Made by a program: the position numbers and the translations under genes | NCBI GenBank assembly: GCA_023270055.1 | Contig: JAGDYB010000019.1 | Location: forward strand, 32,129-96,128 | Source of the DNA: Candidatus Micrarchaeota archaeon | GTDB taxonomy: Archaea > Micrarchaeota > Micrarchaeia > Micrarchaeales > CABMGC01 | Length of the DNA: 64,000 nucleotides | Direction: 5' to 3' | Notes under the pieces: generated by a model | Database searches by the model: none | What the model saw: the letters and a program-made list of their open reading frames with translations, nothing else | What the model was told of the DNA's origin: nothing | In this document: in pieces, positions 16,866 through 50,741 of the stretch | How the letters are laid out: every line of letters starts with the position of its first letter | Numbering within the stretch: position 1 is the first letter of the stretch

Positions 16866-19800
16866 ATGCCTCTTTTGACGATCTTCATTGCCTTCCTTGC
16901 AATAATTGTCCCCGGCTTCTTCTTAGCACTCGCTCTGCTCAGGAAAACGATGCTGAACCTTTTTGAAATAACAGTAATAGGTTTTATATTTGGTCTTATA
17001 TTTCCACCTGTGCTCACTTGGTTCGAATCTTATTTCATAAACAGCATTCACGCATTTTCCTTTTCTGCCGGGCTTTATAATGTGAATGTTGTTATTCTCA
17101 CGATCATAGGCATAGCGCTCTGCATACAGCAAGGTGCAATAAAGATTCCAGGCATTACCAGAAAGGATGAAGTAAAAGAGATCATAGTGGAAGAGAAGGA
17201 TTACAGGAGCAGAATAAATGATCTCAGGCAGAGAATAAAGTTGCTTAACACTGACCTAACACTTGTCAACAAGCACGAGGAAGAAGAGAATGCGCTAAAA
17301 AGAAGGCAGGAGGCTGAGCTGGCATCATTGCAAGGGCTTTCGGAAGAAGAGAAGGAGAAGATAAAATCGATGCACGAGGAAGAAGTGAAAAAGCTTGTTG
17401 AAGAGCACGAGAAAGAGGAGATGCTTCTTATAAAAAGCTCCAAGAACGAGAAAAATTCAATACCTAGCAGTGCCACATGGCTAATACTTCTTTTCCTAAT
17501 GCTGCTTACTTTTTCGACAAGGATGCTAAGCATAGGCATAGCACCAAAGTTCTTTGAGTTCGATCCATATTTCGACATGATAAGCACGGAATACATACTG
17601 ACGTATGGCTACCAGCTTCTTTACGACCACGCCGCATGGCCTACGGTTGCCACGGGCACATCGCACAGGATTCAGCCCATAATACCATATCTCGAAGCAT
17701 ACTGGTATGATTTGGCCAATTCCCTGGACTTTCACTACACCACGCTCAACACAACGCTGCTAAGCGATGTGAGCAGCTTCTATCCACCAATCGCCGCTGC
17801 GTTGCTAGTCTTTGTAATATTCCTGTTCCTTTATCATGAGTACGGAAGCTTTACTGCCCTTGTCGGCGCTTCGCTTGCTACGTTTATGCCAACGCTGATA
17901 ACAACCTTCGTTGCAGGCGAACAACTCCTTGAGCCGTGGGGTATTTTTGCGATGTTCTTCTTCTACGCAACATATTTCCTTGCTGTTAAGCACTCTAAGG
18001 AAAGGAGGTTTGCGGTGCTTGCCGGCATTGCTTTTGCATCAACATTCCTAGGCGCCCACTACTACACGGTTAACGCCGGAGTAATGGCCATATACATATT
18101 GCTTCAGGGTGTATATCTTATTCTTAAAAAGCGCGAGACAAGAGACTTCTACATAACAAATGCGATAGTAATCATAACCTTCTCCATATTCTACCTAATA
18201 TACTCGCCGTACAACGCAACCTTAACTGAAAGAATACCTTCGTTCCTCGGCGTACCATCGATAATAGGCTTTCCTCTGGCTGCATTCCTCATAATCATGA
18301 TATACGAATACGTGCCAATCCTGCTAAACAAATTCAAGATAACAAACCTCAAGATAAATCGGTCGCTGTATGTAGAATGGCTTGTGCTGCTTGTAATAAT
18401 AGCGCTGCTTCTTGTAGCTTTTACCTCAGTAGGGAAGCCAATAAAGTCTTACTTGAACTTGAGCTACAAGTTCACCCACCCTTCGACTCCACTGTTCATG
18501 ACTGTGCAGGAATTCGAGCCTAGCGGCATAAATTTTGATTTTGGCTCAGCAGGTTTTGGCATAATAGCGGTACAGTTCGGAGGCTTCAGCATACTGCTAT
18601 GGGCTGTAATCATAGCATTCACTGTAATAGAAATTTTGTTGCTTCTTTACAGAAATTCAATGTCAAGCATTTTGCTGCTCGCTGCAGTGTGGCCGCTGAT
18701 AATAGCCGCGATGGCTGAAGTCAAGTACATACCACATTTCGGCGTTGCATACATATTGGCTCTGAGTATAATTTTCGGGGAACTTCTCATATATGCAGAA
18801 AAAAATAAGTTATCTTCGAACAACAAGATAAACCTCAAAAACGTGGTTTATGCCATTGGACTTTTCGTAGTATTTGCTGAGGCACTTGTTCTGGTGCCTA
18901 TCCTTTCTGCAGTTTCAAATCCAAACTGCGCAGTACTGTCAAATCCAAACAATCCAAACGCAATAGGCTACGATTTGTACTGCAACGTAGTGCCTAGCTA
19001 TTGGCTCAGCGCGACTGCATGGATGAAATCCCATGTTGGCCCGTATGCGGCAAGGATACTCTCATGGTGGGACTACGGCGATTGGATAAATTGGTTTGGC
19101 AACAGCAACGCTGTTATAAGGGGCGACAATTCTGTGCCATCACTTGACGAGGCAGTTGCAGCACAGTATGTACTAAGCCCACAAGATGGTTTTGGTCCAA
19201 AAACGCTTGCCAACTTCATGAACAAAAACCAGACAGAATATGTAGTTTTTGATAACGCACTTCAGCAGAAATGGGGTGCATTGGATTTCCTTGCATGCGT
19301 ATATGTCAACGAGACAAGCGAGCAGTATGCTGAACAGCAGGCAAGTGTGCTGAATGCATCGCAACCATACGTACTAGGCCAGTCAACATGCGAGGTTAAC
19401 CATGCACCAGTATATGCTTTGGTGCCGCTAAATACATCAATCATAAGCAACTTCTGTCAATCTAGCAATTCATCCGCAGTTGCAATTAAAACAATTCTCA
19501 TACAAGGCAATCACGAGCCGCCGCTTACCGTGGGCACGTACTGCATACCAGAGAACGGACTTAACAATCCTGTAGTGCGGCTTTACAATCAAACGGGCAA
19601 ACCTACAAACATGCTTATAGTGCAATCTTCACAGTTCTTCTACGGCTACGCCAAAATACCAGGCATGGGTGTTGTCGCAGATTTCATGGTGCTTTACACT
19701 CCAAACGGACCAAACTACACAATAACAGACGCACCGTCGCTGTTCTACAATTCCACATACTACAAAGCTTTCTTCTTCGGCCATCTCAAAGGGTTTACTT

Positions 19801-19949
19801 TAGTGTATCCTCAAAATTTCACTGGTATGAACTATATCAACTCTACTGCGCCGGTAATGATATTCAAGCTGGATAACTATAGCGGTGGTGCCGCACCGGT
19901 AACGCCAAAGCCTCCGTGGATAAAGAATAACTACACAATGCCTGGCTAA
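16866..19949 (+). CDS. aglB: Oligosaccharyltransferase AglB/STT3 with N-terminal 3-TM plus coiled-coil extension
   Basis: Catalytic 'WWDYGDWI' motif, first-loop 'FEFDPYFD' acidic motif, many TM helices. 1027 aa. Residues about 1-205 are extra: three TM helices plus a charged heptad-like segment. Confidence 0.9.
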   Translation: MPLLTIFIAFLAIIVPGFFLALALLRKTMLNLFEITVIGFIFGLIFPPVLTWFESYFINSIHAFSFSAGLYNVNVVILTIIGIALCIQQGAIKIPGITRKDEVKEIIVEEKDYRSRINDLRQRIKLLNTDLTLVNKHEEEENALKRRQEAELASLQGLSEEEKEKIKSMHEEEVKKLVEEHEKEEMLLIKSSKNEKNSIPSSATWLILLFLMLLTFSTRMLSIGIAPKFFEFDPYFDMISTEYILTYGYQLLYDHAAWPTVATGTSHRIQPIIPYLEAYWYDLANSLDFHYTTLNTTLLSDVSSFYPPIAAALLVFVIFLFLYHEYGSFTALVGASLATFMPTLITTFVAGEQLLEPWGIFAMFFFYATYFLAVKHSKERRFAVLAGIAFASTFLGAHYYTVNAGVMAIYILLQGVYLILKKRETRDFYITNAIVIITFSIFYLIYSPYNATLTERIPSFLGVPSIIGFPLAAFLIIMIYEYVPILLNKFKITNLKINRSLYVEWLVLLVIIALLLVAFTSVGKPIKSYLNLSYKFTHPSTPLFMTVQEFEPSGINFDFGSAGFGIIAVQFGGFSILLWAVIIAFTVIEILLLLYRNSMSSILLLAAVWPLIIAAMAEVKYIPHFGVAYILALSIIFGELLIYAEKNKLSSNNKINLKNVVYAIGLFVVFAEALVLVPILSAVSNPNCAVLSNPNNPNAIGYDLYCNVVPSYWLSATAWMKSHVGPYAARILSWWDYGDWINWFGNSNAVIRGDNSVPSLDEAVAAQYVLSPQDGFGPKTLANFMNKNQTEYVVFDNALQQKWGALDFLACVYVNETSEQYAEQQASVLNASQPYVLGQSTCEVNHAPVYALVPLNTSIISNFCQSSNSSAVAIKTILIQGNHEPPLTVGTYCIPENGLNNPVVRLYNQTGKPTNMLIVQSSQFFYGYAKIPGMGVVADFMVLYTPNGPNYTITDAPSLFYNSTYYKAFFFGHLKGFTLVYPQNFTGMNYINSTAPVMIFKLDNYSGGAAPVTPKPPWIKNNYTMPG

Positions 19950-20022: not shown

Positions 20023-21165
20023 ATGAAATTGCTTATAGTGCAACCGTTCCTGAACATAAAAGGGGGATATGCAAGAGTGATACTAAAGATAGCGCAGTAT
20101 TACGATGCAACGATCTACACACTTGAATATGAAAAGGACAAGACGTTTGACGAATTCAAGTCCATAAACATAAAAACCATATCAAAACATGTGCCCTTTT
20201 CAGAAATGTTACCATACAGAGCGTCACAGGGTCTCAGGTACGGCTACGCCTTTTACAACATGAAGCTTGAAGACGACTTCGATCTCATAAATGCGCACAT
20301 ATCCCCAAGTGAATTTATTAGACATAAGAATTCGCCTGTTTTATGGTATTGCCATACTCCTCCCCGCGAGGTATACGACATGTACAGCATAAGGATGAAA
20401 GGCAGATCCTATAAGGACAAAATCGTCTACGCCTCCTTCGTCAGCGTATACAAGTTTCTTGCTAAAGGCATAGTAAACAATATAGAGGAAATTGCAACAA
20501 ACAGCAACAACACAAAGAGCAGGATTAAGAAATACTTCATGCGCGATTCAACGGTAATATCCCCCGGAGTGGACTATGAATTATTTTCTAATAAAAACGA
20601 CGAAAAATATTTCTTGTATCCTTCTAGGATAACCCCCACCAAGAGGCAGGAATATGCGATAAAAGCATTCCAGAGGTTTCTGAAGATGAGTAGCGACAAG
20701 CATTACAAACTCATACTTGCAGGGGAGCTTTCCAGCGATCCAGAGCATAGGCAATATTTCCAGAAGCTGAGCAAAATGGCTAGCAAAAACGTGGTGTTCA
20801 AGATTGATGTGACGGATAAGGAACTGATTGATCTATACGCGCATTCAACCGCGGTTCTTTTTACCTCTATAAATGAGGATTTTGGAATAGTCCCTCTTGA
20901 AGCAATGGCAAGTTTCAAACCTATAATCTCGGTTAACGAGGGCGGGCCAAAAGAGACTGTAGTAAACAACGAGACAGGTTTTCTTGTAAATTCGCCAGAG
21001 GAAATGGCGCAGAAGATGCTGCTTGTTTCAGAAAACAAGGCGCTTGCCGAGAAGCTCGGCAGGAACGGACGTCAGAGGGTAGTAAAAAACTATAGTTGGG
21101 ACGTATTTTTGTCCAAGTTCGACAGGCTAGCAAGAAAGACGATAAAGGAAAACAGCGAAAGATAG
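20023..21165 (+). CDS. GT4-family glycosyltransferase
   Basis: C-terminal 'EDFGIVPLEAMASFKPIISVNEGGPKETV' (E-x7-E). I prefer the ATG at 20023 ('MKLLIVQPFLN'). Confidence 0.85.
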   Translation: MKLLIVQPFLNIKGGYARVILKIAQYYDATIYTLEYEKDKTFDEFKSINIKTISKHVPFSEMLPYRASQGLRYGYAFYNMKLEDDFDLINAHISPSEFIRHKNSPVLWYCHTPPREVYDMYSIRMKGRSYKDKIVYASFVSVYKFLAKGIVNNIEEIATNSNNTKSRIKKYFMRDSTVISPGVDYELFSNKNDEKYFLYPSRITPTKRQEYAIKAFQRFLKMSSDKHYKLILAGELSSDPEHRQYFQKLSKMASKNVVFKIDVTDKELIDLYAHSTAVLFTSINEDFGIVPLEAMASFKPIISVNEGGPKETVVNNETGFLVNSPEEMAQKMLLVSENKALAEKLGRNGRQRVVKNYSWDVFLSKFDRLARKTIKENSER

Positions 21166-21174
21166 CCAAATTGC

Positions 21175-21492
21175 TTATTTTGCCGGCTCCTCTTCTATTG
21201 TGTATTTTGATATTATTTTAGTCGCATAGTCAAGTACTTTTTTAATGTTGCTTTCAGTGCTAGAGCCGGTGCAAATCAGCTTTCCATTCTTGAATAGTAT
21301 TATGACCGCTTTCGGTTCCTTGACCCTGAAAATTGCGCCAGGGAACTGCTCAGGCTCATAGTCAACTTCCCTAACATTTTTTGACAGTGCATAAAGGTTT
21401 ATCGTCGCATGTAAATCTGCACTTACGACAATATTCTCTATTCTTATTTCGGGCTTCAGGTTGAGCTTTCTTTCACTCTTCTCTTGCGCCAT
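21175..21492 (-). CDS. Single-repeat TATA-binding-protein-like protein (half-size TBP, about 105 aa)
   Basis: From the ATG at 21492: '[12 protein letters not shown]...[37 protein letters not shown]'. This matches one TBP repeat, most like the C-terminal repeat of archaeal TBPs. No second repeat is present in frame or adjacent. Confidence 0.7.
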   Translation of the reverse strand: [105 protein letters not shown]

Positions 21493-21518
21493 AATATCAG
21501 TATACATATAAAAACCAA

Positions 21519-21531
21519 CATTTAAATATTT
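21519..21531 (-). promoter_or_regulatory. TATA-box-like element for the TBP-like gene
   Basis: Minus-strand 'AATATTTAAATG' lies about 29-38 nt upstream of the ATG at 21492. This is consistent with a near-leaderless transcript. Confidence 0.4.
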
Positions 21532-21763
21532 GCAACTTTTTCTCCAGGCAAATAAATGGCATAGTTTGGCTGGTTTGTAACAACAGCACATATCTTTGCA
21601 AAGCCATCGTTTAGTCTAAAATAAAAATATAAGAATGCCGTATTTACGAGACAAACATTTAAATTTTTATCGCGGCATATTATTAACAAGATAGAGCTAC
21701 AGAAGTGCTGCTAATTCGTAACGTTTATTCATAATCAGTTTTTGTGCTGAAAACGGTGATAAT

Positions 21764-33257: not shown

Positions 33258-33347
33258 CGGGCCCGGCGGGAATCTCATTTTTCAAATTTGAACCCGCGAC
33301 CGTCAGCTTAGAAGGCTGCTGCTCTGTCCAAGCTGAGCTACGGGCCC
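33258..33347 (-). tRNA. tRNA-Arg (UCU) with a 15-nt intron in the T-loop (about position 59/60)
   Basis: Hand fold: GGGCCCG TA GCTC AGCTTGGACA GAGC A GCAGC CTTCTAA GCTGA CGGTC GCGGG TTCAAA[TTTGAAAAATGAGAT]T CCCGC CGGGCCC G. No encoded CCA. The 5' end lies 7 nt after the tatD stop. Confidence 0.8.
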
Positions 33348-50638: not shown

Positions 50639-50741
50639 GCGGGGGTGGCAGAGTTTGGCCAAATGCGCAGGACTGAGGTGCAGTAAGCTCAGAACTCCTG
50701 TAGCTTAAGTGCTTGCGTGAGTTCAAATCTCACCCCCCGCA
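50639..50741 (+). tRNA. tRNA-Leu (GAG) with a 16-nt canonical (37/38) intron
   Basis: Hand fold: GCGGGGG TG GCA GAGTTTGGCCAAA TGC G CAGGA CTGAGG[TGCAGTAAGCTCAGAA]C TCCTG TAGCTTAAGTGCTTGC GTGAG TTCAAAT CTCAC CCCCCGC A. Starts 1 nt after the rpoD stop codon. Confidence 0.85.

Follow-up and report, generated by a model that had tools for sequence, protein, structure and literature searches.

A stand-alone single-repeat TATA-binding protein conserved across Micrarchaeales, and a second half-molecule at the ancestral TBP locus

Among pseudo-symmetric proteins, the TATA-binding protein (TBP) serves as the textbook example: in its canonical archaeal and eukaryotic form, about 180 amino acids (aa) long, two repeats make up one saddle, an arrangement thought to have arisen by duplication and fusion from a homodimeric ancestor. 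We know of no organism that runs basal transcription on an unfused half of TBP. Here we describe a gene of a Candidatus Micrarchaeota archaeon that encodes exactly one such repeat. It lies at positions 21175-21492 on the minus strand of a 64,000-nucleotide (nt) stretch of contig JAGDYB010000019.1 (the window, meaning the whole stretch that was analysed) and is an intact open reading frame (ORF) of 105 codons, with its ATG at 21492 and its stop codon at 21175-21177. The gene is real and single-repeat, its product keeps the residues that contact DNA and transcription factor B (TFB), and a second family of half-TBPs exists in the same lineage. Throughout this report, the single-repeat family of the window gene is called type A and the second, divergent single-repeat TBP family type B.

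TBP domains that stand alone are on record from other archaea. In a few haloarchaea, TbpA is a single TBP domain that clusters with true TBPs and closely resembles the full-length TBPs encoded by the same species; it co-exists with other TBPs and is non-essential (Brindefalk et al. 2013, PMC3597702). The Thermococcales carry monopartite TBP-domain proteins of 91-97 aa (for instance P. furiosus NP_578195), which are only remotely akin to TBP and cluster apart from it (PMC3597702). That paper was the only literature we found when looking, in Micrarchaeota or other DPANN archaea, for a TBP of one repeat, a half TBP or a split one, and a recent study of 163 Micrarchaeota genomes leaves TBP unmentioned in its main text. 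A single copy of a TBP-like fold also forms the N-terminal domain (DUF3378) of RNase HIII, to which type A shows weak matches; those proteins, however, are bacterial and fused to an RNase H domain.

Type A resembles TbpA in being a stand-alone TBP domain that occurs where other TBP genes are present, but differs from it in age and setting. Whereas TbpA is a recent truncation, type A is an old family of another phylum, found order-wide at its own conserved locus and sharing only about 50% identity with the nearest two-repeat TBP. A near-identical full-length TBP in the same genome, the hallmark of TbpA, is missing among the matches listed, where two-repeat TBPs stem from other lineages and share just 44-55% identity with the window protein. 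With the monopartite proteins of Thermococcales, type A shares its length, its single domain and a co-existing TBP-family gene; type A is, however, a strong member of PF00352 that has all functional residues, and its high TBP scores make membership in that group, as described, unlikely. What is new relative to both systems is the combination of an old, order-wide DPANN family, a second half-TBP at the ancestral locus and near-symmetric two-repeat kin. Compared with canonical archaeal TBPs (Pyrococcus woesei 1PCZ/1AIS, Sulfolobus acidocaldarius 1MP9), type A has the same fold, Phe pair, minor-groove Asn/Val/Thr and stirrup, at 37-39% identity to each repeat; the canonical chain, however, holds two repeats, while type A holds one and would need intermolecular pairing.

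Profile searches placed the protein in TBP proper. PF00352 was matched at 87.5 bits against a Pfam cutoff of 22.9 (E 5.4e-25), with residues 15-97 covering positions 1-85 of the 85-position profile; no further domain, RNase H included, was found in the 105 aa, so that in place of the two tandem repeats of a canonical chain there is one domain alone, just as the initial annotation of this locus had stated. In the PDB the sequence matched TBPs at E 1e-40, and in the archaeal ones it aligned with each of the two repeats (E 8.8e-40 for Sulfolobus 1mp9). The alternative that the protein is a non-TBP member of the TBP-fold superfamily was rejected, since matches to DUF3378 (PF11858; 19.3 bits against a cutoff of 27, E 1.3e-3) and RNase HIII (E 0.04-0.06) were marginal and below cutoff. 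All ten NCBIfam TATA-box-binding protein models (PRK00394 series) scored 72-88 bits and thus fell short of their cutoffs of 181-347, because a half protein can match just half of each model. This shortfall also explains why NCBI labels type A proteins hypothetical, while the JGI label is TBP.

We assigned residue roles by alignment to TBPs in the PDB, taking F190/F207, N159, V161, V213 and T215 (yeast numbering) as the functional positions. On this basis, the DNA-kinking Phe pair corresponds to F50 and F67, and the minor-groove residues to N20, V22, I73 and T75. Across the type A alignment N20, V22, F50, P51, F67 and I73 are kept, T75 is nearly invariant, and position 56, where a basic residue follows FPGxI (R56), mostly holds R or K; the invariant blocks are N20-I-V22, residues 44-54 and F67-K..GK.IC.G76. 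The stirrup D44-YEPEQFPG-52 is unchanged in all 23 aligned members and identical to the C-repeat stirrup of Pyrococcus and Sulfolobus. In archaeal TBPs, the acidic YEPEQFPG stirrup of the C-terminal repeat is the part that contacts TFB. Judged by these residues, type A looks like a working DNA- and TFB-binding half-saddle.

The predicted structure is in line with this assignment. An AlphaFold2 model built on a 64-sequence alignment (predicted local distance difference test score, pLDDT, 85.3) has the element order of a TBP repeat, with strands S and helices H in the order S1 (residues 21-26), H1 (33-39), S2 (43-45), S3 (53-57), S4 (62-66), S5 (71-77) and H2 (80-95), flanked by two tails, the N-terminal one short and variable (residues 1-14), the C-terminal one acidic. 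An earlier model from a shallow alignment (pLDDT 60.5) already had TBPs as all of its top 44 Foldseek matches in the PDB, at root-mean-square deviations of mostly 1.8-2.8 Å, and up to 6.6 Å, over 67-79 columns. This first monomer model left S1, the dyad strand, unmodelled, which may be taken as weakly consistent with pairing across S1.

Type A is spread over the whole order. Single-repeat proteins of 90-144 aa made up 104 of the best 120 protein matches, at 69-100% identity to the window protein (most at 70-88%), and their named sources are metagenome-assembled genomes (MAGs) of Micrarchaeota, Micrarchaeia or Micrarchaeaceae; for type A as a family, identity runs at 66-88%. When one genome per prokaryotic species was scanned, the best 80 loci were all type A and came from 80 different records, each with one single-repeat gene, and no tandem relative of type A appeared among about 465 matches. 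The family occurs on chromosome-scale contigs of 0.78, 0.93, 1.05 and 1.21 Mb, some of them named MFD isolates, and the identical gene was found in independent ENA, JGI, Logan and NCBI assemblies (GCA_049967115.1 and GCA_049965915.1 among the last). Within ±10 kb of 85 type A loci (1.33 Mb in all), exactly one single-domain TBP ORF was present in 84, the 85th having one extra, marginal TBP match (E 0.21). A homologue of the convergent family 4 glycosyltransferase (GT4) gene of the window holds the same position in 64 of the 85 loci, which marks them as orthologous, and the thermosome gene is found upstream in the same position in 25. With a mean pairwise identity of 81%, a highly conserved core, variable tails and a median ratio of nonsynonymous to synonymous substitution rates (dN/dS) of 0.10, type A is under strong purifying selection throughout the order. 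As a separate observation, six type A loci (L060, L074, L084, L068, L038 and L077) stand in records whose titles read Acidiferrales bacterium, Saccharimonadales bacterium, Actinomycetota bacterium, 'bacterium' or Marsarchaeota; wrong binning or labelling of contigs from Micrarchaeota is the probable cause.

A second half-TBP, for which the initial annotation had proposed to search, does exist elsewhere in genomes of the lineage. An exhaustive representative search returned P0349 (L086 3622-3975, contig JAGWHI010000008.1), a divergent single-repeat protein of 117 aa that is 52% identical to type A. Both types are present in one MAG, REEA75, which carries type A on JAGWHI010000004.1 and type B on JAGWHI010000008.1, two contigs of similar G+C content (55-56%). 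The P0349 gene lies divergently beside rpl21e, with rpoF (Rpb4) and DUF655 nearby; the two-repeat TBPs of Anstonellaceae and of the organism encoding the two-repeat protein P0397 occupy the same divergent spot beside rpl21e, again with rpoF and DUF655 close by, and this site is the ancestral TBP locus. No remnant of a second repeat was found after P0349. Because type B exists, split and two-gene arrangements stay live as options, and the window protein is probably not the sole TBP-family protein of its cell. Independently, a published arCOG table for the complete genome of the Micrarchaeon Mia14 lists two members of the TBP arCOG (arCOG01764).

The ancestral locus usually holds a single repeat. 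In a metagenome scan seeded with the rpl21e protein, which gave 54 loci, about 34 of those reaching upstream bear a TBP of one repeat here, with 45-55% identity to type A and 59-77% to P0349. At three loci the gene has two repeats that are nearly identical, and each of the three metagenome contigs with a tandem ends within the second repeat. Another three loci (L094, L104 and L125) have full flanks yet no TBP gene, L104 (on a 587 kb contig) having a 501-aa ORF in its place. Type B is under purifying selection as well, although it is less conserved than type A (dN/dS 0.15, mean identity 74%), and ten positions, mostly hydrophobic size swaps in S1, S4 and H2, are fixed differently in the two types. 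Contigs with type B also come from ENA samples that contain the window's organism; the tetranucleotide correlation between one of them (L126) and the window is 0.907, a value that does not separate species, as others reach 0.95. Since NCBI labels both families 'hypothetical protein', genomes with type A and type B look as if they had no TBP at all, which affects completeness estimates and comparative studies of transcription in DPANN archaea. One further single-repeat TBP, P0274 (L148 1100-1483; 127 aa, in a type A-like context), is type A-like in its first half and type B-like in its second (CKIHEPKTALLLFKNGKIICTGAKTEADIRKAIDQ), a mosaic for which the contig being chimeric or the paralogues having undergone gene conversion could account.

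An important aspect of these families is the near-symmetry of their two-repeat relatives. Among the matches listed, those two-repeat TBPs that come closest are from the sister order Anstonellales (P0125) and from other Micrarchaeota or Diapherotrites-like archaea. Both P0125 and the B-B tandems P0395-P0398 (44-55% identical to type A) share its stirrup and have near-symmetric repeats, but they are covalent tandems at the rpl21e-rpoF-DUF655 locus, whereas type A is single and lies elsewhere. The two repeats of related TBPs are 68-86% identical to each other, and 92% in P0397, compared with 41-45% in Sulfolobus and Pyrococcus; for P0397 (L089 6001-6591), P0395, P0396, P0398, P0029 and P0037 the N and C repeats are 79-92% identical in protein. 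The repeats of P0397 are 86% identical in DNA, and only 56 of the 77 codons for identical residues are the same. Because 92% of residues but so many fewer codons agree, the halves appear to be kept alike at the protein level, and the sequences suggest that selection or gene conversion maintains this likeness. A neighbour-joining tree, though based on a short alignment and of modest support, groups N and C repeats by lineage rather than by position.

Given this symmetry, the question of which repeat type A descends from loses much of its sharpness. The initial annotation had noted a close resemblance to the C-terminal repeat, and the Pyrococcus string it gave is correct in the 1pcz alignment. 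Against standard TBP models the resemblance stands: the best stretch of type A was the C repeat in 10 of 10 NCBIfam models (10, 10 and 9 of 10 in the comparison with type B, for which it was the N repeat in 5, 5 and 7). It vanishes against the relatives, because both of their repeats read EYEPEQFPG; both also share the LLLFKNGKIICTG motif, and type A is 37-51% identical to either repeat. With N and C profiles built from 90 diverse TBPs, the C minus N score of type A was -1.2 bits, between controls at -11.6 and +13.7, while type B leaned towards N at -5.9 bits. A clear origin of type A from a C repeat was thus not upheld. Because the ancestral repeats were already nearly identical, a weak N/C signal is to be expected under any reading.

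The number of repeats, too, appears more fluid in the TBP family than textbooks suggest. Within one subgroup of type B, single-repeat proteins, one of them encoded on a 651 kb contig, stand beside B-B tandems. On two contigs from sibling samples whose flanks are 98.7% identical, a tandem (L131 3-536) stands opposite a single repeat (L132 872-1198) that begins like the start of the tandem and finishes like its end; the pair reflects either recombination between repeats, that is, a population polymorphism, or an assembly collapse. Elsewhere in the family, P0127, P0159, P0160, P0230 and P0246 (272-283 aa) have three consecutive repeats, and P0247 has four of eukaryote type, which may be an artefact.

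How could a half-TBP work? A TBP saddle takes two repeats, one repeat being half of a ten-stranded sheet, so a type A chain needs to pair and would therefore act as a dimer. Reading from the sequences, we give an even chance to type A being a functional TBP half that works as a dimer, most likely the symmetric A2 and possibly also A-B. By analogy with TBP architecture, two type A subunits would pair across strand S1, and the resulting dimer would bind the TATA box, which two identical Phe pairs would kink. As each chain holds one repeat, any type A homodimer would be perfectly symmetric. It would offer the TFB-binding YEPEQFPG stirrup on either side, for which reason the direction of transcription would have to be set by TFB reading the TFB recognition element (BRE), the established source of promoter polarity in archaea. 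We favour A2 because the lineage tolerates symmetric TBPs, because B2 would behave like B-B and because A is more constrained than B; that close relatives have type B now single, now as a B-B tandem, is what one would expect were a one-repeat homodimer equivalent to a tandem.

From the same evidence we infer that type A is expressed, dimerises and binds DNA, and that genomes carrying it lack a covalent two-repeat TBP. No two-repeat TBP on the type A contigs of 1.21 Mb and 0.94 Mb appeared among the matches listed (three lists of the best 120, where it would have been expected to rank). The submission series, compared by NCBI accession block, did not overlap, which speaks neither for nor against co-occurrence. 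We are evenly divided on the broader proposal that Micrarchaeales do without a covalent two-repeat TBP, build the saddle from A and B subunits and have repeatedly switched the TBP gene between one and two repeats, this switching being possible because the halves were kept functionally interchangeable. Several observations weigh against the dimer of type A halves as we picture it. The lack of a two-repeat TBP is drawn from the matches listed and the ancestral locus, and not from a whole-genome search. The presence of both A and B in REEA75 and of two TBP-arCOG members in Mia14 would also suit an A-B heterodimer or a type B that serves as the general TBP. Finally, the tandem and single repeat of L131 and L132 could come from the collapse of near-identical repeats in assembly.

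The true case lies among the three explanations that the initial annotation had listed, namely a homodimer, one half of a split gene or a paralogue that modulates TBP; we rank them in this order of probability. That A and B are obligate halves of a heterodimeric TBP, with an N-like B at the ancestral locus and a C-like A moved beside GT4, is a serious though clearly less probable possibility than A2. Apart from their joint presence in one MAG (JAGWHI010000004.1 and JAGWHI010000008.1) and the two arCOG01764 members of Mia14, such a split would explain why both types are under purifying selection in streamlined genomes of about 1 Mb and why type B occupies the exact site of the relatives' two-repeat gene. 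The NCBIfam contrast given above (A C-like, B N-like) points the same way, as do the N-leaning profile score of B beside a neutral A and the ten fixed differences, several of which are large/small swaps in S1, S4 and H2. On the other hand, co-occurrence is direct in just one MAG, whose purity is unknown, type A is not clearly C-like when set against diverse TBPs, and three fully flanked rpl21e loci have no type B. The B-B tandems, with repeats up to 92% identical in P0397, show that B can pair with itself.

We consider it improbable that type A is an accessory paralogue or modulator, in which case type B or an undetected two-repeat TBP would be the general factor and A would regulate a subset of promoters, titrate TFB or form inactive mixed dimers. 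A second TBP-family gene does sit at the ancestral locus, type A lies away from it, and TbpA of Halobacteria provides a precedent for a non-essential single-domain TBP paralogue (PMC3597702). Yet A is more conserved than B (81% against 74% mean identity, dN/dS 0.10 against 0.15) and present in all 80 best genomes, and it keeps every DNA-contact and stirrup residue, where a decoy would be expected to lose those that bind DNA. Least of all do we believe in a two-repeat TBP that a frameshift, the end of a contig or the collapse of a repeat has halved: short-read assemblers can collapse near-identical tandem repeats, and the tandem-bearing metagenome contigs do break within the second repeat, but assembly truncation is rejected by the copies in ENA, JGI, Logan and NCBI assemblies and by relatives on chromosome-scale contigs, and decay or relaxed selection by a dN/dS of 0.10, conservation in 80+ species, a conserved stop codon and neighbours, and the lack of a remnant in any frame or of a tandem type A relative among the roughly 465 matches. 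The two refuting cases named by the initial annotation, a decayed gene and a non-TBP family of the superfamily, thus both turned out in favour of its reading.

Should Micrarchaeales indeed run basal transcription on such half-molecules, their saddle would amount to an extant, though secondarily derived, form of the homodimeric TBP from before the duplication that has long been postulated for the origin of the transcription machinery of archaea and eukaryotes. The ancestral-homodimer hypothesis would then become directly testable with natural A2, B2, AB and B-B tandem forms, and the comparison would show how much of the asymmetry of TBP is dispensable when TFB and BRE provide polarity. It would also bear on promoter orientation, TBP turnover and regulation in genome-reduced symbionts.

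The local setting of the gene is as the initial annotation described it. Downstream and convergent lies a GT4-family glycosyltransferase gene (20023-21165, plus strand; named from its Pfam labels), whose stop is 9 nt from that of the half-TBP gene, and upstream a divergent thermosome gene (Cpn60/TCP-1, PF00118; 21764-23425, plus strand), separated from it by 271 bp (21493-21763). Because a six-frame phmmer search with heuristic filters off (--max) found no other TBP-like stretch at E<0.3 in the window, and no remnant of a second repeat in the 271-bp intergenic region, there is no adjacent or frameshifted second repeat; upstream of the half-TBP, the list of ORFs offers just one unsupported extension of 33 codons. 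A putative TATA-like element on the minus strand, AATATTTAAAT at 21530-21520, was read from the sequence about 32 nt before ATG 21492, close to the 30 nt or so noted at first. Such a spacing is usual for archaeal leaderless or short-leader mRNAs, and the candidate element would imply a transcript of this kind. NCBI annotates the same 105-aa product from ATG 21492 ('hypothetical protein ACP5MK_00845'), while other gene callers chose a start five codons earlier (ATG 21507, 110 aa); we favour ATG 21492 because the spacing of AATATTTAAAT fits it.

A few other features of the window deserve mention. At 50639-50741 (plus strand), a 103-nt tRNA match (Rfam, 46.7 bits) that has no ARAGORN call is probably an intron-containing tRNA. 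A second match to the tRNA model, of 59 nt at 33289-33347 (minus strand; 31.4 against a gathering score of 29, again without an ARAGORN call), may be a truncated or atypical tRNA or a chance hit. At 16866-19949 (plus strand), a polytopic membrane protein of 1027 aa, with a Glu/Lys-rich, coiled-coil-like insertion of about 90 residues near residues 100-190, looks by eye like a candidate oligosaccharyltransferase.

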